DNA of 64,000 bases from IMG/VR virus record IMGVR_UViG_3300010998_000021, positions 47,468 to 111,467 of that record; one strand, 5' to 3'. Source of the stretch: a virus (Duplodnaviria; Caudoviricetes). The notes under the pieces were generated by a model, which was not told where the DNA came from, did not search any database, and worked only from the letters and a program-made list of their open reading frames with translations. Of this stretch, positions 4,856-59,277 are shown piece after piece (the first letter of the stretch is position 1; each line of letters starts with the position of its first letter). The position numbers and the translations under genes are program-made.

Positions 4856-5797
4856 TTATGCCGCGAGATTGTCTTTAAGAATCTGTTCTATGTTATTAAA
4901 ATCTTTATACCAAATTTCAAGCAACTGGATTTTGTTATCATTTGCATATTTACGTTTACGCCTATCATGTTCTTTCTGATATTCAAGCTGTTCGTATGAT
5001 TGAGAATTAGCTGTGCCATCATGAAATTCGCCCTGATATTCAATAAGTATATTGTTATCTGGTAGATAGAAGTCATATGATAATAATCCACCACCAATAC
5101 CTTTTAAATCAGAAAATGATTTTTGCCATTCGAAATTAACATCGTTATTTTCAAGAAATGTTAGAATTTTCAATTCGCCTTTTGATGTATTGCATATAGG
5201 ACAGCCAGATGGACTTCTTTTCCCTATAAGATTATGTGCTTTAGTTTGCCAAACGTGTCCACATACTTTACATCTACATGTTATTGGTTCATCATCTTTT
5301 GTATATCTGCTTATAATATCTATTGTTCTATGATTCAAGTTACGTTCATTAAACTCGCTAATGAATTGTTCGTGAGATTTAATTCGATAATTTTGAACAT
5401 ATTTCATTGCACAATTTTTACATCCATAACCTCGAATTAACGAATAAGGCATCGAATCCCATTCATTTCCACATTTTTTACATTTGCATTTAATTTTCGT
5501 ATGAGAAGTTTTGTATTCACCAACAATTTCTGTATTTGGATTTATACCTTCAACTTCCTTTATAAATTCATCGTTTGTTTTTCTAACACATTCAGAAACA
5601 TAATCAATAGCACAATATTTGCATCCGTGTTCTGATTTAAGAATAGACATAGGCATTATTTCAAAATCATAGTCATGTATGTTGCAATGAAACATTATTG
5701 GCATTCTCATTTTTCTATAACGACCGATTACGTCTATATGTGGATGTTTCTTTTTAACATCATTAACAAAATCTTCATGTGTAATTACTTTAGACAT
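4856..5797 (-). CDS. Free-standing Zn-ribbon-repeat endonuclease with Vsr/DUF559-like PD-(D/E)XK domain (putative homing endonuclease)
   Basis: Three repeats of THEEF...IGEY...CxxC...GCxxC, then SKGE...YDFYLP...IEYQGEFH...D..K; paralog of the ORFs at 7455 and 11839. Confidence 0.75.
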   Translation of the reverse strand: MSKVITHEDFVNDVKKKHPHIDVIGRYRKMRMPIMFHCNIHDYDFEIMPMSILKSEHGCKYCAIDYVSECVRKTNDEFIKEVEGINPNTEIVGEYKTSHTKIKCKCKKCGNEWDSMPYSLIRGYGCKNCAMKYVQNYRIKSHEQFISEFNERNLNHRTIDIISRYTKDDEPITCRCKVCGHVWQTKAHNLIGKRSPSGCPICNTSKGELKILTFLENNDVNFEWQKSFSDLKGIGGGLLSYDFYLPDNNILIEYQGEFHDGTANSQSYEQLEYQKEHDRRKRKYANDNKIQLLEIWYKDFNNIEQILKDNLAA

Positions 5798-5817
5798 TTA
5801 TACTCACCATCCAATAT

Positions 5818-5846
5818 AAAAGAGGACTGCCTAAACAGTCCTCTTT
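5818..5846 (-). terminator. Terminator after the major capsid gene
   Basis: AAAGAGGACTG-cctaaa-CAGTCCTCTTT hairpin. Confidence 0.7.
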
Positions 5847-5891
5847 AGTGATTCAAGTGGCGAGTAATTATCTCGCAAACTTGTTATTTAA

Positions 5892-6992
5892 TTAGTCTAA
5901 TCCCCCAACGTTAGTGTCATAGAACATACCTATTTTATATTCCTGACCCTTGGCAAGATCACATCCAACCTCGATGTCGAATCTACTCTCGACACGACCA
6001 TTCTTCACATTGTTACCAGTGAAGGAAGTCAGACCGCCACGAGTGTAAGTAGCGATAGGAGACTGCGCACCAGCAGGAACAATGAAGCCAAGACCAGCAG
6101 GAAGCATAGTCTCGAAATCAGTACCAGCCGCATTCAGAGTAGTCTCATCATACGGATTGTCAATTTCAGCAAGAACAGCACCATTGTACATTCCAAGCAG
6201 ACCATTCTGAGCGATCTCATTCATCTGAGCTTCAGAAATACCAGTGATAGTATTAGAAGCGATAGTGCCAACGTATCCAGCCCAAGGAGTGAACTGAGAC
6301 AGAAGAGCATAGTCACCGATTACGGTTGGGCGACCAAATCTACGAATCTTGGTCAGAACGCCATCAACGCCAGCCTTTGTCAGTCCAGCATTCTCAAAAG
6401 CATACTTCACGCCAGTAGCATCATGAATAGCTTTGTAGATTTTCTTGATAATAGCACGGTTAGCCTTGTTGCGAATATCAATACGAACCTGTTCCATGCC
6501 CTCGTTCTCTTTGGACATATCGCCAAGTGCGACTCTACGATAATCTACAGCATAGCCACCCGAAACAGTGAATGTCGGAACAGGATAAACTTCCTTAACG
6601 ATAGCCGAAAATACAACATCACCACCAGCAGCCTGTTCGCGAGATTTCTCGCCAACATGCTTGTAAACTTCACGCTCGATAGTCTCATCGAAACCAACAG
6701 CCTGATAAGAACCGAAGATAGAAAGCATCTTCATTTCCTGAAGCAGAGGAGCTTCGATAACAAATCTACGAAGTGTATTCAGTTCAGCAACGGCGTTGAA
6801 ATCACCATTCTCAGCACGAGCGCCAAGCTCTTTAATGTAATTAACTGCTTTATCTGCGCCCTTAATAGCGCCAACTTCTTTGCCGTTAACCATAGCAGAG
6901 AAAACTTCGGACACGATAGATGTCGCACGCATTTCTCTGTTCAGGTAATCAGCATCTTTACGAAGATTGTTTAACTCGTAAGTAGTATTCAT
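5892..6992 (-). CDS. Major capsid protein
   Basis: 366 aa, highly biased codon usage, strong SD, follows the protease/scaffold and decoration genes, has its own terminator. Confidence 0.8.
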   Translation of the reverse strand: MNTTYELNNLRKDADYLNREMRATSIVSEVFSAMVNGKEVGAIKGADKAVNYIKELGARAENGDFNAVAELNTLRRFVIEAPLLQEMKMLSIFGSYQAVGFDETIEREVYKHVGEKSREQAAGGDVVFSAIVKEVYPVPTFTVSGGYAVDYRRVALGDMSKENEGMEQVRIDIRNKANRAIIKKIYKAIHDATGVKYAFENAGLTKAGVDGVLTKIRRFGRPTVIGDYALLSQFTPWAGYVGTIASNTITGISEAQMNEIAQNGLLGMYNGAVLAEIDNPYDETTLNAAGTDFETMLPAGLGFIVPAGAQSPIATYTRGGLTSFTGNNVKNGRVESRFDIEVGCDLAKGQEYKIGMFYDTNVGGLD

Positions 6993-7021
6993 ATTATATT
7001 ACCTCCAAATATAATTGATAA

Positions 7022-8726
7022 TTACGCTACCATAACAACAGCCTTAACAGCCTTTTCCGTAAGCGTAACCTTGTCAGTAACTTTAAAATAAACGCCTGAT
7101 GACGGGGCAGTAGAAGCAACCTCAAGAGTGCCATCTGTCTTAGGCTTCAGCAGAGTAGTTCCAGCGGTAATATCATCATAGTCAGCACCAGAAGCATAAG
7201 TAATATGCTTCTCATCAATAACAAGTTTCTGACCAGCCCAAGCGGAAAGATCATAACCATTCAGGTATTCTCCAGCCTTAATTGTAACGCCATCTTTATA
7301 CGCATCGTCACCATTGATGTCGTTAAGAATCACATAAGTAATTCCATCAACAGTGAGGAAAGAATTATTAACAACATCATTTTGGGATGTAAGGACAGGA
7401 TTGATTTTTGCAATATCCAGCATTCCTAAAGTTTCAACTTTACGATATTGTTTGTCAGCTTGCTAATTCATTTTGTAGTATTTTTTCTATATTTTCATAC
7501 TGTGTATAAGGTATTCTGATTAATCTAATATTATTATCAATACAAAAATCATTTTTAATATCATCATGCTTTTTAAGTTTATCTAAACTATCATTACCAC
7601 CGAAAAAATCTTTTGCAACGTAATGTTGTATTCCGTCATATTCTATAGCAACATTGTATTCTGGAAGATAAAAATCAAATGGTAATACGCGTACATCTTT
7701 GCAATCTTCAAATGTTTTTTGGCATTGATAATCAATTTGTTCATTATTTAACCAATTCTTTATTTTATTTTCTCCACGAGATATTGTGCAGTTAGGACAA
7801 CCATTTCCACCATCTAACATAGTATGTGGCGCACTTGAAAAATACTTTCCGCATTTTTCACATAAACACAATATCTTTGTTTTATTATTTTTATATTCAC
7901 CGATTACTTTAATATCTGGATGTTTATCTTTCATTTCTAAAACAAATTGATCTTGCGTTTTTCGCATCAATCCACTACACACAGGACAACCTTTGCCGTG
8001 TAATAATGAATTTGGAACTGGTTTCCATATATGTCCACATTTTTTACAAGAGACTTCTATGGGTATTCTATTATTTTTATATTCACCTAATACAGTTATG
8101 TCTTCATTTATATCTTTCATTTCAGATATAAATTGTTCCGTTGTTTTGTTTGCACATCCAGCGCAATTAGGACAACCATGACCCATATATAAACTTCCGG
8201 GAGTAGAACTAAATTCATATCCACACACAGTACACTTTAAATTTACTTTAGTTCTACTATTCCTGTATTCACTCAAAACAGTTAATGTTGGATGATTGAC
8301 ATTCATTTCGTGAAGAAATTGTTCATTTGTTTTTCTTCGCAATTTGACCACCAACTTTATTATTATATGAATTAGCAATACGGTTCGCTAAACCGCGCAA
8401 GTTATTAAATAACTTCTCGTACTTTCATACGAAGTCCAGACTATATCATTCATCATGCCATTTCTGGTTTAGATGCCCTCCACTTCGGATGCGCTTGCAT
8501 CCTAACGGCATTTCAGCCGATAGTCGTTGAGCCTTCCCCTGTTCGGGGCTTGGTTGCTGATTGCCCAATCTATTTACTTTTCAAACCATCACACTTACAC
8601 ATATTTCATTGTTATGTTGTGGTAAAATAGCTATAAGGGTTTTCCAGCAGTTCAAAGGGATACATTATATTCTTTCGATATATAACGGACTATTCACATG
8701 GTATATTCAACCATGTTTCTAATCAT
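7022..8726 (-). CDS. Capsid decoration/auxiliary protein split by a group I intron: join(8722..8726,7022..7442), about 141 aa
   Basis: SD AGGAGG then ATG AT|; the second exon T AAA GTT GAA ACT gives MIKVETLGMLDIAK...; lies between the scaffold and capsid genes. Confidence 0.75.
7443..8721 (-). ncRNA. Group I intron (1279 nt) carrying an endonuclease ORF
   Basis: P1 GAU|UA pairs with UAGUC; core GAACUGCUGGAAAACCC, CUCAACGACUA, GAUAUAGUC and P9 CUUCGUAUGAAAGUACGAGAAG closely match the intron at 146-516; terminal G at 7443. Confidence 0.9.
7455..8378 (-). CDS. Intron-encoded Zn-ribbon/Vsr-like homing endonuclease
   Basis: Three CxxC...GCPxC repeats plus SRGE...PFDFYLP...IEYDGIQH; lies inside the intron after P9; true start probably a few codons downstream. 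Confidence 0.8.
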   Translation of the reverse strand: MLIHIIIKLVVKLRRKTNEQFLHEMNVNHPTLTVLSEYRNSRTKVNLKCTVCGYEFSSTPGSLYMGHGCPNCAGCANKTTEQFISEMKDINEDITVLGEYKNNRIPIEVSCKKCGHIWKPVPNSLLHGKGCPVCSGLMRKTQDQFVLEMKDKHPDIKVIGEYKNNKTKILCLCEKCGKYFSSAPHTMLDGGNGCPNCTISRGENKIKNWLNNEQIDYQCQKTFEDCKDVRVLPFDFYLPEYNVAIEYDGIQHYVAKDFFGGNDSLDKLKKHDDIKNDFCIDNNIRLIRIPYTQYENIEKILQNELAS

Positions 8727-8749
8727 TTTGATTTCCTCCTAATTTCAAA

Positions 8750-9940
8750 TTAGAAAATGTCAACATCCTCTTCAGAAACCTTCTTTTCGTTGATTTCAGA
8801 GAAAATATCTTCAACTTCATCTTCTACGTGTTCAGAAGCCTTCTTCGCTTCTTCCATATATTTCTTACCAATCTCTGCATGAATCTTGTTCACTACAGAA
8901 TTGATTTCGCTTGTAAGCGGATTTTCATTGAATGCGTCAATCTCAGCCTGTGCAAAAGCTTTCTGCTCATCAGTAAAGCCTTCAATAGCAGCATTCAGTT
9001 CACCAATCTTTTCTTTCTTCTGCGCATCTTCAAGATTGGATTTCAGTTCATTGATTTCGCCAGTAAGTGTCTCTTTTTCAGCTGTAAGAGCAGTATTGGC
9101 TTCATTAAGCGCAGTTACTTTAGATTCAAGCTCGGCAATGTTTTCATTCTGTCTTTCGATTTCAGCCTGAAGCTCCTTAACAAGCTCCTGAGATTCGGCA
9201 ATGCGTTTTTCGCATTCCTCCTTCATAGCATTGATCTCTTCGGCGGAAGAATTCATTTCGCCGATAACCTGAGAAACGATAGCTTTGATTTCATTCTCAC
9301 CCATCGTGAAGTCCTCCTTATCGACATTATTAGATTGATTCAATTCCAGTATTTTTGCTGTTTTGTCCGCAGGTCTAACCCCAAGCAAGGCATAACCCGA
9401 ATACTCAAAAACCATAGGAATACGACCATAATCTTTATAGCCGTATTTGTAGATAATTGATGGATTATCACCTGTCTTTAGGATTTCGACACTACCAAAA
9501 GGCGCATTACCATCTTCAATATCTTCTTCAAGTTTTTCACAGAAGTTGTGATAACATAGACCATCAATAGTTCCTTCGCCAATACAAACAGTCTTGATAC
9601 CTTCATCAGTCTCAATGTCTGTAATGTATCCTTTTTCAAAAGTACCGATCATCACGGCGTTTTCGAATATTGGTAATCCATCCTTGGTTTCTGTTTCGCC
9701 ATGCCCATTGAGGAACGTTCTTTCTTCGTCAAGAAATTCGCATCTGATGCTTTTCCCTTCAAGCGTTGGGAGAGCCTTTTCGCAATATTCCCTAATCCAA
9801 GAAATGCCGTTATCGTTATATTCACTCGCCACACCATTTTTCTCATCCACGCATGAGTCAGGATAAATTTCGTGAAGTATAACCTTGAAATGTCTGCGAC
9901 CATTTTTTGAATCTTTCTTAGAAAGCTCAAAAGTTTTCAT
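8750..9940 (-). CDS. Prohead protease/scaffold fusion
   Basis: Globular N-terminal domain and long acidic coiled-coil C-terminus; between portal and capsid genes; SD AGGAGG before the ATG at 9940. Confidence 0.7.
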   Translation of the reverse strand: MKTFELSKKDSKNGRRHFKVILHEIYPDSCVDEKNGVASEYNDNGISWIREYCEKALPTLEGKSIRCEFLDEERTFLNGHGETETKDGLPIFENAVMIGTFEKGYITDIETDEGIKTVCIGEGTIDGLCYHNFCEKLEEDIEDGNAPFGSVEILKTGDNPSIIYKYGYKDYGRIPMVFEYSGYALLGVRPADKTAKILELNQSNNVDKEDFTMGENEIKAIVSQVIGEMNSSAEEINAMKEECEKRIAESQELVKELQAEIERQNENIAELESKVTALNEANTALTAEKETLTGEINELKSNLEDAQKKEKIGELNAAIEGFTDEQKAFAQAEIDAFNENPLTSEINSVVNKIHAEIGKKYMEEAKKASEHVEDEVEDIFSEINEKKVSEEDVDIF

Positions 9941-9977
9941 TTCAAGTTGCCTCCTTGTGAACATATATGTATATAAA

Positions 9978-10005
9978 AAGAGGGCAGTAGTGAAACTGTC
10001 CTCTT
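9978..10005 (-). terminator. Terminator-like hairpin between portal and protease genes
   Basis: AAGAGGGCAGT/ACTGTCCTCTT stem with a T-run on the minus strand. Confidence 0.55.
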
Positions 10006-10020
10006 GATATATTGAAAATA

Positions 10021-10164
10021 TTAATTTTTAAAAACCCACCTATTGCGTTCTGCGGCAATTTCCTCGAAACCTAAATTCCTTAATTTGTCAGCAGTATCTT
10101 TATCGGTGGTTGCAATATAATGAAAATCTTCAGTGTTTGTATCCGATTTATCATCGTTTTTCAA
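10021..10164 (-). CDS. Small protein not in the ORF track (47 aa), DUF5659-like
   Basis: Translates as MKNDDKSDTNTEDFHYIATTDKDTADKLRNLGFEEIAAERNRWVFKN; TTG start uncertain. Confidence 0.4.
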   Translation of the reverse strand: MKNDDKSDTNTEDFHYIATTDKDTADKLRNLGFEEIAAERNRWVFKN

Positions 10165-10200
10165 AACCATGTTTTATTGCATCCTTATAAAATAATTCTT

Positions 10201-11838
10201 TTATTGTGTACTCGGTGCAGGAGTACCATTTGTGTTATTTGCTTTTGTCTGCAATGTACTGTAGTTAGAACTATCATCATCAGTAGGTCTGCCAACCTTA
10301 TCATCTTTAGAAGAATATGTATAACTTGTTTGATGAACAGGATATTTGTTTTCTATATTATCTTCTAATTCTTGATCTAACAAAGCAAAATATACTTCTG
10401 GTGAAATTCCAGCAGCACTCGCCCAAAGCGACAATGAACCTTTCCCTTGCAAATACAAATCCTTTGCATTAGCAACCATTGTTTTTTGATTTACATAAGT
10501 AGTAGGAAGATACTTACATTCAACACTATTTCTTTTATCTTTTATTATATTCGCATTGATACATTTATTTAATTCTGCTTCGATTTGTTCTATCCATTGA
10601 AATATTTCTGAACTTAATAATTCTAAATTATTTACTTGCGAAGAATAGTTACCACTTCCAGAGCCATTAAGAAGAGATGCTGCTATACCTAAATCCATTG
10701 CTATTTTATCGCAAAGATTTGACTCATACTTATCATCAAATATATCTGTATTATTTGCATCAATACTGTTAATTTTAGTTCCGGCAGCAACAGAAAAGAA
10801 TGAAATACCACCGCGATTGTTTTTATTCATTACTGCGCCTTTGACTTTTTCGTGTTGATTTTGTTGCTGTTTTTGTGACAGGGCAGAAGTGCCTTTATCT
10901 TTTCCTTCTGGAAAAGTTTGATAAATTATCCTATTATTTATTTCATCTAATACATTTCTTTTAGTATCAGTAAAATAATCACCGTAAAGGACATCGTTAA
11001 TTGCAGCAAGAGCAAGCGGTCTTCCCCACGGTTCTTCTTTGCTACTTCTAATTTTATGAACAATAGTTTTTGTTGGATCAAGAACAACCCATCTTTCATG
11101 ATTCCCTTGATAGTATTTATCTCTAATTTCTTTAGGATATTTTCTCAGTTTTCTATCAGCTTCTTCGCCTTCGCAATTATCAAAATATGATAAATCAAAT
11201 GCTAATTGATAATTCGAGTTTCTTATCCCAATAATCTTTGTATAATCAGGAGATAGTGAAATTATTGACGCATTTATGCCTAATTCATTTATTTCATGTA
11301 TTCTTTCAACGTCATAATTACTCATTATTTTTTCTCTTGATAACGGTCTTTCAGTTGTCTCGAAATAGTAAAACGCAATACCATCAACCATACCACGGAA
11401 AAGCGCATCACGCACAATCTCTTTATGCTTAATGCCTTTAAGCGTAGATTGCATAAGGAGTCTATTTCTTTTCTTTTTCTGTTTACTTTCTCCATAAGGA
11501 ACTATTACATTATCAAGCGTAGGTATGGCAGTCATATAATCAACAGTGTTTGTGTAAACACCGTTACACCCATATAATATGCGAGATATTTCACGTAATA
11601 CCTGATTGTTAGCCATTGGATCACGAATTAAATCCCTTATTTGTTCTGGCTTATATAAATCGAAAACATTCATCATGCCATAATATGAAATGGCGTTAAG
11701 ACGATAAGAACGGAATGAGTTAAATTCATATTCTGTATTATCTTGTTTTATATCTTGTTGTTGATTGTTTTCGTAGTTTAGTTTTTTATAATTACTTCGT
11801 CTATTATAAGAGGAAGTAGTATTATTTTTGTTTGCCAT
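10201..11838 (-). CDS. Portal protein
   Basis: 545 aa after the terminase; EPWGRP motif and C-terminal VGRP typical of SPbeta-like portals. Confidence 0.8.
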   Translation of the reverse strand: MANKNNTTSSYNRRSNYKKLNYENNQQQDIKQDNTEYEFNSFRSYRLNAISYYGMMNVFDLYKPEQIRDLIRDPMANNQVLREISRILYGCNGVYTNTVDYMTAIPTLDNVIVPYGESKQKKKRNRLLMQSTLKGIKHKEIVRDALFRGMVDGIAFYYFETTERPLSREKIMSNYDVERIHEINELGINASIISLSPDYTKIIGIRNSNYQLAFDLSYFDNCEGEEADRKLRKYPKEIRDKYYQGNHERWVVLDPTKTIVHKIRSSKEEPWGRPLALAAINDVLYGDYFTDTKRNVLDEINNRIIYQTFPEGKDKGTSALSQKQQQNQHEKVKGAVMNKNNRGGISFFSVAAGTKINSIDANNTDIFDDKYESNLCDKIAMDLGIAASLLNGSGSGNYSSQVNNLELLSSEIFQWIEQIEAELNKCINANIIKDKRNSVECKYLPTTYVNQKTMVANAKDLYLQGKGSLSLWASAAGISPEVYFALLDQELEDNIENKYPVHQTSYTYSSKDDKVGRPTDDDSSNYSTLQTKANNTNGTPAPSTQ

Positions 11839-12951
11839 TTAACATACCTCCTCGTTAAGTAGCAATTCATTGTCTAAAATAATATCAATATTATCGAAAT
11901 CCTTATATGATATACGAATTAAATGGATATTATGATTTTTGCAATAGTCTGTTTTAATTCTATCTCTTCTTTGCGTTTCTACTAAAGCATTCTCCCCACC
12001 CCATAAATCAACTGCTTCAAAATGTTGAATACCATCATATTCAATTGCTATCGAACAATTTGGGATAAAGAAGTCAAATGGTAAAGTATATATATCTTTG
12101 CAATCATCAAATCTATATTGTGCAACATATTCTATATTGTTGTCATTTAAAAATTTTCTAATACGTTTTTCACCTTTTGATGAAGCACAATATGGGCAAC
12201 CACGTAAATTATGAAGTAAATTCCTTGGTGATGATTCGTTGATATTACCACAAGATTTACATCTATATGCTATCTTTGTATCCATATTTTTGTATTCACC
12301 AATAATTTCGATGTTATTATTTATTTCAAACAATTTTTCTGCGAAAGAATCAGTAGTATACTTAGCCACGCCAGAACACACAGGGCATCCTGTACCAAAT
12401 AATAAATTCCCCGGACGCGCATTCCATTCATTCCCACATTCTTTACATCTGCATTTTACTTTAGTAAATGAATTTTTGTATTCATCTAAAATCTCAATAT
12501 TCGAATTTATTGTCCTAAGTTTTTCAACGAATGTTTCGGTAGTGTATCTTTCTTTCTTTGAACATCTCGGACATCCATAACCGTTTAATAACGAAGATGG
12601 GACTGCCATATATTCATACCCACAAATAGAACATGCACATCGAATTTTAATATTATTCCTCACATATTTGCCAAGTGGAACGATATGTTTATTAGCTTCT
12701 TTTAATTCAGCAATAAATTCATCATTACTTTTTGATTTTATATCTGAACTCCTTTTATTTGAACATAATGGGCATCCATGCCCTTTTAATAAGTTATGTG
12801 GAAACGCACTCCATGTGTGTCCACATTTAATACATTCGCATTCTATATAATCATTCGTCCTTTTATATTGACCAATAATTTTTATGTTTGGATTTATATT
12901 CTTGATTTGATTGATAAATTCCTCATGTGTTTTCTTCCGCATTTTAATCAC
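11839..12951 (-). CDS. Free-standing Zn-ribbon-repeat Vsr-like endonuclease
   Basis: Four CxxC/GCPxC repeats plus SKGE...PFDFFIP...IEYDGIQH. Confidence 0.75.
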   Translation of the reverse strand: MIKMRKKTHEEFINQIKNINPNIKIIGQYKRTNDYIECECIKCGHTWSAFPHNLLKGHGCPLCSNKRSSDIKSKSNDEFIAELKEANKHIVPLGKYVRNNIKIRCACSICGYEYMAVPSSLLNGYGCPRCSKKERYTTETFVEKLRTINSNIEILDEYKNSFTKVKCRCKECGNEWNARPGNLLFGTGCPVCSGVAKYTTDSFAEKLFEINNNIEIIGEYKNMDTKIAYRCKSCGNINESSPRNLLHNLRGCPYCASSKGEKRIRKFLNDNNIEYVAQYRFDDCKDIYTLPFDFFIPNCSIAIEYDGIQHFEAVDLWGGENALVETQRRDRIKTDYCKNHNIHLIRISYKDFDNIDIILDNELLLNEEVC

Positions 12952-40864: not shown

Positions 40865-41077
40865 CAACATGGACACATTTTTAATTTACCAGTGGCGCAA
40901 ATCCGTATATTGCATTTGTTAAAGAAGAAGCGAATGAACTTATCAGGAAATATAAACAAAAAGGCTATTTGATCGAAGAATTATCAGAAGGGTTTTATAA
41001 AATCCACGATAAATAAAACAAGATAATTATTGACAGGATAGCATAAATGTGCTATCCTATATTAGCATATTTAGGAG

Positions 41078-41557
41078 GTGAAATTTATGTATTATGTAAG
41101 TTATGGCAGCAATATGAATGTAGAACAGATGGCGTATAGATGTCCAAATACAAAAATCTATGGAAATGGAAAAGTAAAAGGATGGAAACTCGTATTTAAT
41201 TATCATGCAGATATTATTGAGACAGGAATAGAATCTGATTCCGTTCCTGTTGTAGTTTGGGAACTTGATAACAAAAATGATGAAAAACGTCTTGACAGAT
41301 ACGAAGGTTATCCAACATATTATGTAAAAAGAATTGTTCCTGTTGTTATGGATAACGGTAAAAAGATCAGAGCAATGGTTTATGTAATGAATAATCTTCA
41401 TAAAGGGATATACCCACCAACGCAGTTATATTTTGATGGAATTTTAGAAGGTTATCATACAAATGGTATTGACACGAAACCATTATTCGATGCTCTTAAA
41501 TTCAGTCTTAACGAGGACAATTTTACGGAGCATAATCAGTATAATCCAATAGCATGA
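41078..41557 (+). CDS. Gamma-glutamylcyclotransferase (AIG2-like) family protein
   Basis: YVSYGSNMN..QM..RCP...LDRYEGYP..Y. Confidence 0.85.
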   Translation: MKFMYYVSYGSNMNVEQMAYRCPNTKIYGNGKVKGWKLVFNYHADIIETGIESDSVPVVVWELDNKNDEKRLDRYEGYPTYYVKRIVPVVMDNGKKIRAMVYVMNNLHKGIYPPTQLYFDGILEGYHTNGIDTKPLFDALKFSLNEDNFTEHNQYNPIA

Positions 41558-41571
41558 AAGGGGTTGATGCT

Positions 41572-41988
41572 ATGAAAATTGAACGATCCAAAAGAGTAAT
41601 AGAAAATTATGTATGCCCTAATTGTTTTCATCAGGTGCATGAATGCATATGCAAATTCTATCCACCGTGGCAATTAATAATGATTGATGTAAACATTCAG
41701 GAAGTTGTCAGGATTTTAAATCAAAAAGGTTATACCACTATTGGATGCTGTGAGTCGCATTTCGGGGGTAACAATAATATCTATATCGCGTTCAATATGC
41801 GCTATGATGATATTGGTTTACCAAATGGCTTTACATATGCCAAAGGAAAAACCAACATTAGTTATTCATTCAAGAAGTCAGAACAGGAAACAAAAGAAAA
41901 ATATGAAGAATTGAAAGCGGAAAAACTGAAAGCGCTATTAGAATGGGCGCGGTCAATTCCAGAAAATCCGCACATGTTCAGGAGATAG
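41572..41988 (+). CDS. Hypothetical protein with ID..I...V..LN.KGY.T..CCESH motif (TYW3-N-like)
   Basis: Motif as stated plus an N-terminal CPNC. Confidence 0.5.
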   Translation: MKIERSKRVIENYVCPNCFHQVHECICKFYPPWQLIMIDVNIQEVVRILNQKGYTTIGCCESHFGGNNNIYIAFNMRYDDIGLPNGFTYAKGKTNISYSFKKSEQETKEKYEELKAEKLKALLEWARSIPENPHMFRR

Positions 41989-42082
41989 AGCGGTTGATCC
42001 GCTCTATTTCTTTATGCAGAAAATTTTAATATTGGAAAACCATTTTCGTGATGTCACGAAAAAGATAAATTTTCAAAAACTA

Positions 42083-42216
42083 TTTGGGGTTGTTCCGTGC
42101 TTCTCCATCTTTGAACCGATCAGATAATCTAAACACTATTCATAGTTTTATCGTGCGGCGTAAGACCGCACATCTATACTTATATCGTTCTTTCATCTGG
42201 CGGCGCAAGACCGCCA
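42083..42216 (+). pseudogene. Orphan 3' end of a DGR target gene with homing hairpins
   Basis: TTTGGGGTTGTTCCGTGCTTCTCCATC (FGVVPCFSI) as in the gene at 57921, followed by two GCGGCG(T/C)AAGACCGC hairpins. Confidence 0.65.
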
Positions 42217-42428
42217 TATCCTATGCAGAAAAATTCAATTTTTAAAAACTAAAATAAATGGATTGATGTTTTTCAAAACGTGGAAATTTTGCGGCGCATC
42301 GCGCAGAAAAATCCTATTATAAAAAATTAAAAATAATTCAAAATAACGCTTGCAATATCTATTTTTGTGTGGTAGAGTGTTTACAGATGATAAATCACAT
42401 ACACAAACGCATCGAAAGGAGATCCACA

Positions 42429-43115
42429 ATGAAAGACTATAAGGAAAAGATCAAGAAACTTCTTGCACTGGCAGAAAGCAACAACGAACATGAAGCAAAG
42501 GCGGCGCTCCTGAAAGCTAAAGAGTTGATGGCAGAACACAAGATCGCTGAGGTCGATCTGATTGACGCGAAGAATAAGAACGTCAAGCGCATCATTACAG
42601 AATACGAATACACCAAGCGCGGCGAATGGTGGATCGGCAGTCTTGCCAATATCATAGCGGAAAATTATTGCTGTCGGTCAGCTGGAAATAAGAATTTCAG
42701 AGGGCAGAAAAGAACGATTATTTTCGTAGGTCTGGAAGGCGATGTTGATATCTGCGCAAAGATTTTTGAGTATGCAGTTGATACGGCGAGAAGCTGCGGA
42801 AAGTCTTATCTGAAAAATCTTGATGGGTGGCAGCGTTACACTTCAGCGGAAAAGAACAGGATCAAAAACTCCTATGCTATCGGATTTGCGAGAGGTGTTA
42901 AGGTCGTATTTGATGAGCAGAAGGTCAAGAAAGAACAGGACGAGAGCGGATGGGGTCTTGTCATGATCGTTCCTAAAGAAGTCAATGAAGCGTGTTCTAA
43001 TTTTGTGACGGATAAATACCAGAGCAGACATACAGTTTACAGCGATGTCAGGGATGACGGTTATCAGGAAGGGCGCAAGTTCAATCCGCATGGAAAATTA
43101 TCTGTCGCGATTTAA
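42429..43115 (+). CDS. DUF2786 domain protein
   Basis: KIKKLLALAESNNEHEAKAALLKAKELMAEH N-terminus; IIFVG...D; SYAIGF. Confidence 0.8.
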   Translation: MKDYKEKIKKLLALAESNNEHEAKAALLKAKELMAEHKIAEVDLIDAKNKNVKRIITEYEYTKRGEWWIGSLANIIAENYCCRSAGNKNFRGQKRTIIFVGLEGDVDICAKIFEYAVDTARSCGKSYLKNLDGWQRYTSAEKNRIKNSYAIGFARGVKVVFDEQKVKKEQDESGWGLVMIVPKEVNEACSNFVTDKYQSRHTVYSDVRDDGYQEGRKFNPHGKLSVAI

Positions 43116-43126
43116 GGGGTGAATAA

Positions 43127-43354
43127 ATGAACGCAATAATCAGAGAGGAAACGGATGATGGCGTTAAGATGTCGAAGATTGATAATGTCGGCATTGTAAA
43201 ATATGGAAGGATATATTCTGCTGTCAGTGGGAAATGGCGTGAAGAAGTAGAACTATGGACGCATTCAGTTAGCCCACATTCAACAATCATTCTTGATGCG
43301 AAAACACAAATTATTTTGGAAGGAGACAAGAACATTGAAAATTATAAACTATGA
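43127..43354 (+). CDS. Hypothetical protein
   Basis: 75 aa; VGIVKYG shared with the ORF at 36308. Confidence 0.5.
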   Translation: MNAIIREETDDGVKMSKIDNVGIVKYGRIYSAVSGKWREEVELWTHSVSPHSTIILDAKTQIILEGDKNIENYKL

Positions 43355-43714
43355 TGGGAGCATATTACATTGTAACAGCCTTTACTTTACGGAAAAAGAA
43401 GTGATCGCAGATGACGTTTATATAATTCCGTTAATAGAGATCCAAAGGATAGAAGCTGAATAAGATAAGTGCCAGAGCAATCTGGCGTTTTTCTTTTGTA
43501 TCGCATAATAGTTTTTGAAAATTGGAAATATTTGTTTGTTGCAAATAAAATAATCAATTTTCAAAAATTAACATTTGCCGCATCATCCGCGCAGAAAAAT
43601 TGAATTATAAAAATCTAAAAATAATTAGAGAAAACGCTTGCATTATTTATTAAGTTATGCTAATATATAGTAAAGCAAATACACAAAGCAAACCAAACTA
43701 AGGAGGTACACACA

Positions 43715-57163: not shown

Positions 57164-57601
57164 ATGTATAAGCAAATAATAATAGCGAGAAAAGATTTAA
57201 ATATGTCATCTGGAAAATTAGCTGCGCAAGTCAGTCATGCAAGTATGGCATTTCTTACAAACAAAATCAGAGATAATTTTAAAGAAGTATATTCTGATGG
57301 CGAATGGTGTATTAAATCTGAATTAAAATTCGACTTGGATTTATTTGATAACTGGATTAATGGATCATTTACAAAATGTATTCTTGAGGCGAAGAATAAA
57401 TACCAGTTGGAAAAATCAATTACAATGGCAAATGAAATGGGATTGATTGAAGGAAAAGACTATTTCATTATAAGAGATAATTGCTTGACAGAATTACAGC
57501 CAGAAGAGCCAGATGGCAGAACAATTACATGTGTTGGTTTTGCGCCAATGCCAAGTGATAAAATTGATAAGATCGGCAAAAAATATCAATTATGGAAATG
57601 A
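57164..57601 (+). CDS. pth2: Peptidyl-tRNA hydrolase, PTH2 family
   Basis: KQIIIARKDLNMSSGKLAAQVSHAS...W....FTKCIL...IRD...TE...TCVGF.P. Confidence 0.85.
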   Translation: MYKQIIIARKDLNMSSGKLAAQVSHASMAFLTNKIRDNFKEVYSDGEWCIKSELKFDLDLFDNWINGSFTKCILEAKNKYQLEKSITMANEMGLIEGKDYFIIRDNCLTELQPEEPDGRTITCVGFAPMPSDKIDKIGKKYQLWK

Positions 57602-57920: not shown

Positions 57921-58637
57921 ATGGATAGCATTAAAATTTACAAGGATAAAAACACTGGAAAGAAATATATCAAGATTTCTGATGGTGCTTACGTAGCCAT
58001 TGAGGATGTTAATACACTTGGACTTGTAGAATATAAGGCAGAAAAATTCGCATATACTCATAATCATTATGTCACAAGCAAAAAAAAGATAGATGATATT
58101 CTTGGTGCGGAATATGCTTTAAAGGATACAATTATAATTCCTGTTGGTGAAAGGAACATTACATTTGTTGTTGAACATATCGCGCATTTTAACGATCACG
58201 ATAAAGTTTATTTTGTAGCAAAAGATATTGTTGGAAAATCATCAATTGATGATATGGAAAGTTTTCTTGATGATTTTGAAGCATCAATGCCGGAAGAACT
58301 CGTTGAAAAGATGAGCATTGTGGAACATATTATCGAAGATGATGATGGGAAAGAGTTTGTGTACAGAAGAAAACTGAATCTACTTTCTAAAGCGAATATG
58401 AAGGAATGTGATGGTCATAGCGGTGATGATGATATCCTGTTCGATGGTTTAAAAACCGAAGCGGATAGATGCAAGAACTATAATGGCTTGACTGACTACT
58501 GGTGGTTGCGTTCGCCGCTTCTCGGCTACTCTACGTCCTTTTGGTATGTCTACGCGGGCGGTGGTTTCGGCAGCTACTCCTACGCCTCTTCCGTGTTTGG
58601 AGTCGTGCCATGCTTCTCCATTATTATCAATAAGTAA
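57921..58637 (+). CDS. DUF6273-like protein with a C-terminal DGR variable region
   Basis: YWWLRSP...F..V...G......A....GVVPCF CLec-type C-terminus; abrupt GC-rich, A-poor NNC-codon segment; downstream hairpin. Confidence 0.8.
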   Translation: MDSIKIYKDKNTGKKYIKISDGAYVAIEDVNTLGLVEYKAEKFAYTHNHYVTSKKKIDDILGAEYALKDTIIIPVGERNITFVVEHIAHFNDHDKVYFVAKDIVGKSSIDDMESFLDDFEASMPEELVEKMSIVEHIIEDDDGKEFVYRRKLNLLSKANMKECDGHSGDDDILFDGLKTEADRCKNYNGLTDYWWLRSPLLGYSTSFWYVYAGGGFGSYSYASSVFGVVPCFSIIINK

Positions 58638-58672
58638 GAAAGTAAACTAAACAATAATCTCATTTTTATATC

Positions 58673-58691
58673 GGGCGGCGTAAGACCGCCT
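58673..58691 (+). other. DGR-type homing hairpin downstream of the variable region
   Basis: GGGCGG-CGTAAGA-CCGCCT; covarying copies at 42153 and 42198. Confidence 0.65.
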
Positions 58692-58716
58692 GATTTAAAG
58701 TTATCAAAGGAAATTT

Positions 58717-59277
58717 ATGATGGATGTGAAATATTATGTAGAAGTAAAAGTTATATCAGAAGAACCTAATGGAGAATTTATTGTAAATTATTCTCCTCTT
58801 GCTCGTGGAGATTACCTCATAAAACCTGAGTTTTTAAAAACATCAAAAGATATTGTAAATGAAGATGAATTAAAAGAATCGCAAAATAAAGAAAAGCAAG
58901 ATTATATCGAAAGCGGTAAAAGGCTTTTAGGATATTTGGAAGAATTAAAAACTTTTAGAGATCAAAGACAATCCGGCGATTTATCAGATGGTTTCCATAC
59001 ATTCAACGATCTTTATTATCAAAGAATGATTCTGTTTGCAACACTTGTAATGACTTATAAAGACAAGGCTTGGAAATCTTATGCACATGAAGATGGTGAA
59101 TTATGCTTTGGTGGTGGTTGGTTTATCGTAGGAATTGATACACCAGAAGGAAGTTATACATATCATTATAAAAATGAGTATTGGGATATGTTCGATTGTA
59201 AAGAATTAAAAATAGGTAAGCATTGGGATGGACATACGGATAAAGACGTTACAAGAATGTTGTCATTAGTCAAATGA
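58717..59277 (+). CDS. WDGH-motif conserved phage protein
   Basis: SDGFHTF..LY..R..LF...WKS..H.DG...WFIVGI.TP.G..TYHY...WDGHT. Confidence 0.7.
   Translation: MMDVKYYVEVKVISEEPNGEFIVNYSPLARGDYLIKPEFLKTSKDIVNEDELKESQNKEKQDYIESGKRLLGYLEELKTFRDQRQSGDLSDGFHTFNDLYYQRMILFATLVMTYKDKAWKSYAHEDGELCFGGGWFIVGIDTPEGSYTYHYKNEYWDMFDCKELKIGKHWDGHTDKDVTRMLSLVK

Follow-up and report, generated by a model that had tools for sequence, protein, structure and literature searches.

The module at 42083-42216 described here, about 135 bases long and enclosed between repeat units, is interpreted, with moderate confidence, as an old, shared, dispensable and non-coding relic of the 3' end of a deleted DGR target cassette. 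The DNA analysed (hereafter the window) makes up the right-hand 64 kb of an IMG/VR virus contig of 111,467 bases, which is estimated to be 72% complete, and the runs holding this contig come from ruminant or other animal gut. Comparison with DGR targets of other viruses shows that the module is homologous, judged on its DNA, to the 3' end of a DGR-target-type gene, namely to the last variable codon, the IMH, TAATC and a GC hairpin.

Genomic context and content of the module

The early region of the window (about 32400-58000) is made up of short cassettes, each with a promoter-like 63-base repeat (family D1, 11 copies, TTGACA...TATAAT), and these cassettes carry spacer-unit arrays of the type CAGAAAAAT...TTTTNAAAAC. 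It is at spacer units, for example at 42225 and 42257, that contigs of other samples break or rejoin. Pfam recognises, among the neighbouring genes, a GGACT/AIG2-like gamma-glutamyl cyclotransferase (41078-41557), a PTH2 peptidyl-tRNA hydrolase (57164-57601) and a WDGH-domain protein (58717-59277). A tandem family of paralogous genes is suggested for the minus strand at 5450-12950 of the window, where adjacent ORFs contain repeats of families D3 and D5 (82-93 bases, 4-6 copies, 65-78% identity).

The left neighbour of the module is a terminator-like hairpin on the plus strand (GAGCGG-TTGAT-CCGCTC plus a T-rich run, 41988-42013), which ends the gene for a 144-aa protein (41554-41988); it was recognised by eye, was not called by the consensus scan, and is kept in all five related loci in the alignment. 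It is followed by a spacer repeat unit of family D15 (42014-42046), identified by repeat analysis, and by the spacer palindrome ATTTTCAAAAAC (42069-42080), seen both by reading the sequence and by repeat analysis, which is one of many spacer units in the early-gene region. A further palindrome, TTTTCGTGA-TG-TCACGAAAA at 42043-42062, was called terminator-like on the minus strand and is conserved in the related loci L135-L138.

The junction of the relic lies two bases (TA) to the right of the palindrome at 42069-42080, and the same arrangement of unit plus TA is found in L136, L137 and L139. All the features that follow are on the plus strand. Nine ex-codons read FGVVPCFSI (TTT GGG GTT GTT CCG TGC TTC TCC ATC, 42083-42109): the initial TTT is the last variable codon and stands upstream of an IMH-type core, GGGGTTGTTCCGTGCTTCTCC (42086-42106), which was assigned through the VR/TR pairs of the contigs L129, L130 and L126 and carries the target-type TGC, the TR-type TGA being absent. 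An ex-coding tail, FEPIR, then reaches the stop codon TAA (42125-42127), so that the tail and the TAATCT motif (42125-42130) together occupy 42110-42130. Motif search and folding identified hairpin 1 (GTGCGG / CGTAAGA / CCGCAC, 42153-42171), placed 43 bases past the FSI codons, and hairpin 2 (TGGCGG / CGCAAGA / CCGCCA, 42198-42216), a tandem second copy preceded by ATCT. On the right, the module is bounded by another of the five D15 units that repeat analysis found in the window (42223-42255, with the palindrome ATTTTTAAAAAC at 42238-42249), a recurrent mosaic breakpoint at which contigs of the runs X3, X5 and X8 show joints and loose ends at 42225.

Only 14 ex-codons are left in the orphan, and there is no coding target gene of which it would form the 3' end. 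A 37-aa ORF (42014-42127) does run through it, with its start inside the spacer repeat, and this ORF is not conserved in L139. The DUF6273 (PF19789) family scan of the contig reported four places (two targets, the TR and the gene at 58.6 kb), the orphan not being among them. In agreement with the sequence-only reading, no variable-region-like DNA was found upstream of 42083, where a spacer unit and, by eye, the terminator-like hairpin of the 144-aa gene are found instead. In addition, the scan gave no promoter-like site immediately upstream on the plus strand, the sole plus-strand site (41508-41536) falling inside the upstream coding region; the orphan has a terminator-like hairpin on its left and the next promoter-like repeat on its right.

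Homology to the 3' end of DGR target genes

The gene at 58.6 kb (57921-58637, plus strand) encodes a 238-aa DUF6273 protein of the intact paralogue type (Pfam E 5.5e-9), with a VR at about 58497-58598 and an IMH core at 58599-58619. Its protein ends in ...VFGVVPCFSIIINK (also given as ...FGVVPCFSIIINK), and the gene is followed by TAATCT at 58655-58660 and then by hairpin 3 on the same strand (GGGCGG-CGTAAGA-CCGCCT, core 58673-58691), which in folding extends to nine pairs, one G-T pair included, over 58670-58694 (-18.0 kcal/mol, z -4.6).

The sequence-only reading had pointed out that DNA encoding FGVVPCFSI follows the palindrome at 42069-42080 and is synonymous with the end of this gene. This holds: the two 27-base stretches differ at five third-codon positions, and all five differences are synonymous. 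As the nine codons are identical at the protein level, we conclude that the piece evolved as coding DNA before its truncation. The orphan IMH and that of the 58.6-kb gene differ at 4 of 21 bases. For a degenerate 20-base core pattern, 0.02 occurrences would be expected in the window and two were found, and a pattern search with up to two mismatches gave no further copy of the core in the 111-kb contig.

The assignment of the nine codons derives from active DGRs elsewhere. In IMG/VR viral contigs, the degenerate FGVVPCFSI pattern matched two contigs, L129 and L130, one of which is complete with terminal repeats. Both have VRs ending in FGVVPCFSI* at the termini of proteins of 2613-2673 aa, the TRs lying about 1 kb further downstream, and in both the VR has TTT versus AAT and TGC versus TGA in the TR; the orphan therefore corresponds to the last mutable codon followed by an invariant IMH of the target form, with TGC. 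The 20-base degenerate pattern (orphan positions 42086-42105) also fits L129 at both its TR and its VR end and L130 at its VR end, and among the 31 stretches that it matched in viral contigs, VR ends are found only in these two. In genome contigs, a 21-base pattern gave four matches, none of them in a DGR-like or AT-rich spacer context. As to the elements beyond the core, many gut-phage DGR targets have the stop codon within TAATC, and then AATCT or AATCAG leading into a GC hairpin.

A third reference is L126, an active DGR in which 14 of the 15 VR/TR mismatches fall at TR adenines. A near-identical contig (L027:1-230 compared with L126:8990-9230) lacks about 85 bases, which span the IMH as well as the 3' half of the VR; a DGR target has either lost them in a natural deletion or been collapsed during assembly. 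We also observed several IMG/VR contigs of 30-49 kb (L180 and L195, L183 and L197, L184 and L186, L179 and L190, L187 and L199) with a VR/TR pair 670 bases apart and a further VR-type copy some kb away, followed by its own AATCAG-type hairpin; these extra copies are probably non-adjacent second targets.

The 58.6-kb protein belongs to a family in which we found 25 homologues, mostly of about 235-240 aa, with a conserved end GVVP[C/G/S/N]FSI. The FEPIR tail of the orphan is present in none of the 25, and its parent gene was not found among them. Searches of viral contigs for relatives of the 238-aa protein and of the 144-aa protein gave none. Compared with its closest ortholog, P0001 (92% identical), the 58.6-kb protein has 185 of 192 identical residues ahead of the VR and 11 of 11 behind it, but 23 of 35 inside the VR itself. 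Hence the description of this gene as variable is borne out by its hypervariability relative to P0001, but a cognate TR is missing from the contig: when both strands of the 72%-complete sequence were scanned with tolerance for adenines, none was detected, the best stretch having 33 non-adenine mismatches in 135 bases. Given the hypervariable VR, a second TR of matching IMH type probably lies in the unassembled 28% of the genome, and either this TR or a whole second DGR serving the 58.6-kb gene would be expected there.

Two observations on this VR come from contigs of other runs and are suggestive only: contigs of X5 and X3 end or diverge at 58478-58513, inside the VR, among the pieces listed, and base 58524 is A in four of four runs, among the rows listed.

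Structure and distribution of the hairpins

In each of the three hairpins, folding gives a stem of six pairs, then a bulged A and one C-G pair that closes a GNRA-type tetraloop, either GUAA or GCAA. The outer two stem pairs vary among the copies by changes on both sides, which confirms the earlier observation of TAATCT and two hairpins with stems covarying with those of a third copy at 58673. The window, L136, the second hairpin of L137 and the unrelated L126 lineage all share the seven-base loop CGYAAGA; in L126 the loop (CGCAAGA) tops a seven-pair stem about 85 bases after the active VR.

Could the likeness to DGR targets be due to chance, or to a common repeat with no connection to them? 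Exact matches to the 15-base hairpin motif number more than 118 in IMG/VR, which speaks for a repeat. Among the 118 that were examined, two (L126 and its relative L027) follow a DUF6273 VR and belong to an active DGR; the other 116, which do not follow such a VR, come mostly from contigs of 50-72% G+C, and the low-G+C ones inspected lie inside open frames. In the window, on the other hand, the motif occurs three times against 0.01 expected, a regular expression for a looser type found no hairpin in the whole contig beyond the same three places, the core is likewise in excess of expectation (two against 0.02), and the same junction and core recur at the same locus in three relatives. A chance or repeat origin is therefore hardly credible. 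The sequence-only reading had named, as what would speak against it, a common repeat unrelated to DGR targets together with the lack of a target gene at this locus in relatives: the hairpin is no common repeat (three copies in the contig, two of the 118 examined matches after a DUF6273 VR), but a target gene at the locus was indeed found in none of five relatives.

A different proposal assigns the hairpins, alone or together with the core, a function in RNA: they would stabilise the 3' ends of read-through transcripts from the upstream gene, provide processing sites in them or terminate them weakly, and the link with the DGR would be purely historical. The stable GNRA tetraloops with a bulged A would suit such a role, a hairpin of the same kind stands 3' of the intact 58.6-kb gene, and some inverted repeats after the IMH may be terminators according to the part of Wu et al. 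(2018, PMC5758913) drawn on here. Against this, a T-run is absent after all three copies (42171, 42216 and 58691) and the terminator scan gave no calls there, so the hairpins do not have the make-up of intrinsic terminators; the upstream gene is already ended, by eye, by the terminator-like hairpin at 41988-42013. Moreover, none of the eight Rfam matches over 41900-42450 (E 0.69-5.6) approaches its gathering score, with 12.7-19.6 bits against 34-180. We consider a function at the RNA level improbable.

The resident DGR and its fit to the orphan

The contig contains a complete DGR outside the window, on the minus strand at G000:C1:13109-23021. Specifically, the family scan identified a first target of 2146 aa ending in VR1 and a second of 464 aa ending in VR2; the same interval (C1:13.1-23.0 kb) holds a 336-aa RT (Pfam RVT_1, 65.6 bits) and an avd-like ORF of 145 aa, named by its position and size alone, and the TR maps to C1:16049-15923, all on the minus strand. 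VR1 differs from the TR by 20 mismatches, 17 of which fall at TR adenines, and VR2 by 17, of which 15 do so. A BLAST search of the contig with the TR matched VR1 and VR2 only. The two resident targets have identical IMH DNA, and the hairpins that follow them are long and T-tailed, unlike those of the orphan.

When aligned with the genome's own TR/IMH*, as the sequence-only reading had recommended, the orphan core matched the end of the resident TR at 13 of 21 bases, and the core of the 58.6-kb gene also at 13 of 21. The orphan IMH is thus far from near-identical to the IMH* of the only TR on the 72%-complete contig, and on this same incomplete contig the orphan lacks a VR differing from a same-genome TR essentially only at adenines. 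We conclude from the mismatch to the resident TR that, as far as the letters tell, the orphan is not a working target of the contig's DGR. In addition, the orphan and 58.6-kb IMHs differ at 4 of 21 bases, while the co-served resident targets are identical in this element, which makes service of both by one TR unlikely.

These data bear directly on the suggestion that the module is a live, empty landing pad for a DGR on the contig. The point in its favour is the general principle, described in Guo et al. (2011, PMC3240598, as far as that source was drawn on), that an IMH plus hairpin can target a DGR. Set against it are the match of only 13 of 21 bases to the contig's only TR end, the 4 of 21 bases by which the orphan departs from the 58.6-kb IMH, the different IMH and hairpins of the resident targets, and the absence of TR-like sequence upstream of the orphan. 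The landing pad of the sequence-only reading was accordingly abandoned as very unlikely.

The locus in related phages

Through the upstream 144-aa protein we found five related metagenome loci (L135-L139), and the comparison covers these loci themselves. An intact gene at the position of the module, which the sequence-only reading had proposed to look for as a DUF6273 gene, is present in none of the five; three (L136, L137 and L139) carry the same truncated piece and two (L135 and L138) lack the module. The downstream genes differ from locus to locus. It follows that the truncation is old and inherited and did not occur recently in this genome. The earlier idea of a second target cassette deleted with a breakpoint at the palindrome is thereby partly upheld: the homology to a 3' end and the position adjoining the palindrome support it, but a recent deletion in this genome does not agree with the same truncation in three of five relatives.

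L136 and L137 show 87-88% nucleotide identity in the 144-aa gene, and their sequence is the same as that of the window through unit, TA and core. As the core identity of these three is part of a longer identical tract, it is uninformative on constraint. The tail residues read FEPIR in the window, FETIR in L137 and FEMIG in L136. L137 has both hairpins, with the loop of hairpin 1 mutated and its C-G closing pair lost, and L136 has a single hybrid of hairpins 1 and 2 in which two outer pairs are broken (-6.4 kcal/mol).

L139 is more distant, its neighbouring gene having 57% protein and 64% nucleotide identity, with 12 of 21 fourfold sites matching. Its core matches at 24 of 26 bases and the flanks align at 56-67%. 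Its junction is likewise unit plus TA, but two of three T's are missing, and the junction differs from that of the window by two bases; a one-base insertion (an extra C) after TCTCC breaks the frame, with unalignable DNA beyond, and no ORF is common to L139 and the window. The piece lies between two spacer units and has a hairpin with an entirely different eight-pair stem, preceded by ATCT. The closest relative, L135 (96% nucleotide identity), and L138 (74%) both have spacer units that adjoin directly.

Further comparisons concern the surrounding DNA. A blastn search of 41000-43500 against 50,697 phage records gave no match, and the DUF2786 neighbour was found at three loci, with 53-55% identity and without synteny, the records of which contain no DUF6273. 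Contigs (assembled sequence, not reads) of four runs were aligned to the window at 80% likeness, and no piece bridging 42083-42216 was present among the pieces listed. One contig of X7 joins 42040 to 42226 with 15 other letters between and would represent a module-less allele; it was not counted as evidence, because the joint has on either side a spacer unit with further copies in the phage and the lengths of the sides are not given.

Origin of the module and its possible role

Taken together, these data are best accounted for by a parent cassette that would have been a small one with the DUF6273 / C-type-lectin fold, like 57921-58637. An old illegitimate deletion would have joined a spacer unit (TTTTCAAAAAC plus TA) to the VR/IMH boundary, taking away the promoter and nearly the whole gene and leaving behind the last variable codon, the IMH, a short C-terminal tail with its stop codon, and the downstream hairpin. 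The hairpin may later have been duplicated in tandem in one sub-lineage. The relic would then have been inherited by related phages in a slot bounded by two direct spacer units, within a highly mosaic early-gene region, and its loss in some relatives would probably have proceeded by unit-to-unit recombination. We infer a single ancient deletion, and likewise the mechanism of loss. In view of the two-base difference between the window and L139, two independent junction events are possible; independent recurrent truncation, through aberrant homing with a very short cDNA, was also considered as an origin of the junction.

The decayed reading frame, the damaged hairpins of L136 and L137, the closest relative without the module and the poor match of the core to the resident TR are consistent with a dispensable relic. 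Four points count against this account. L139 keeps the core and the hairpin structure amid diverged surroundings, which resembles constraint on both, this being one distant relative and a comparison range chosen post hoc; the loop CGYAAGA is identical across lineages, the unrelated L126 included; a second TR of matching IMH type is probably to be sought in the unassembled 28%; and the two-base difference at the junction of L139 would allow for two separate events. The survival of core and hairpin in L139 leaves a small but real chance of a role at the DNA level.

Such a role would make the module a selected non-coding cis element, a VR-less IMH with hairpin kept either as a secondary or decoy acceptor for the cDNA of a second DGR or, together with the spacer units, as a 3' homology anchor for swaps of DUF6273 cassettes. 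We regard this as possible but unlikely. In its favour, core and hairpin are kept in L139 despite 57% protein identity in the neighbouring gene and flanking DNA that can no longer be aligned, the stems change on both sides between copies while the loop stays identical across lineages, and all cis features of the target family are present (IMH with TGC, TAATC, ATCT and a GC hairpin). Furthermore, IMH and hairpin are enough to direct a DGR to a foreign gene, according to the portion of Guo et al. (2011, PMC3240598) used here, and the hypervariable 58.6-kb gene implies that a matching DGR is probably active in the lineage. On the opposite side, the module is missing in two of five relatives, the closest one included, and its hairpins are damaged in two others (L136 and L137); the orphan IMH is 4 of 21 bases off that of the 58.6-kb gene, where the resident targets have the same IMH DNA, which argues against one shared TR; upstream homology for the 5' end of a cDNA is absent; and the lack of core differences among the window, L136 and L137 sits in a longer identical tract. 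A more specific form of this proposal, which we consider doubtful, is that, in the early region of these ruminant-gut phages of about 150 kb, selection maintains a VR-less IMH with hairpin which would serve by itself as acceptor for a retroelement or as anchor for recombination. On this view, a second DGR of the GVVPCFSI type would prime there, the module acting as a decoy or homing regulator, or else the module would make a newly recombined DUF6273 cassette diversifiable at once.

Returning to the relic interpretation, the module would be a natural example of the gain and loss of DGR target cassettes at repeat-bounded slots in large gut phages, and would mark IMH plus hairpin as the part of a target that survives such a deletion. 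The phage itself emerges as the carrier of one complete DGR with two targets and of a third target-type gene, hypervariable between strains and template-less on the assembled 72%. If the module were under selection, it would be the first stand-alone DGR acceptor site known to us, within the part of the literature covered. In the sections of the DGR literature searched, including those of PMC3240598 and PMC5758913, no stand-alone DGR acceptor or orphan IMH was found, and their supplementary tables may list degenerate targets.

Comparison with known systems

The order of elements in the module is that of the target cis elements of the Bordetella phage BPP-1: a last mutable codon, a GC-richer invariant IMH encoding a conserved C-terminus, a stop codon and a GC hairpin with a four-base loop (PMC3240598, in the part consulted). 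There, IMH plus hairpin suffices to direct the DGR to a foreign gene (Guo et al. 2011, same part of PMC3240598). Like DGR targets, the orphan IMH has TGC where TRs of the same family have TGA, and its hairpin type is shared with the active L126 target. Unlike the BPP-1 type, the orphan lacks both a variable region and a gene, and the contig has no TR that matches it.

Inverted repeats of DGR targets, as described in the same portion of PMC3240598, have 7-10 pairs and a GRNA four-base loop and lie 4-34 bases from the VR; Wu et al. (2018, PMC5758913, in the passages used) recorded such repeats for 127 DGRs out of 372. The orphan agrees only in part with these published repeats, differing from them in its stem of six pairs plus a bulge plus one pair, in its GTAA and GCAA loops (GNRA rather than GRNA), in the 43 bases that separate the hairpin from the last conserved codon, and in the presence of two hairpins in tandem.

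In distance, the 58.6-kb gene (about 90 kb from the RT) and the orphan (about 74 kb), both with target-type 3' ends, resemble the non-adjacent DGR targets described in the consulted part of PMC5758913. Those targets are defined there by adenine-only differences from a TR, and neither the orphan nor the 58.6-kb gene shows this relationship to the contig's TR. With Rho-independent terminators the orphan shares a GC-rich stem-loop after a stop codon; unlike them, its hairpins have no T-run and were not called by the scan, whereas those of the resident DGR targets are T-tailed.

Gene remnants occur at mosaic junctions of phage genomes. The module resembles them in being a short ex-coding fragment, with neighbouring genes that differ among relatives and short repeats at the breakpoints. 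It differs from them in two respects: what has been left is exactly the cis-acting part of a retroelement target, and one distant relative keeps this part better than its flanks.
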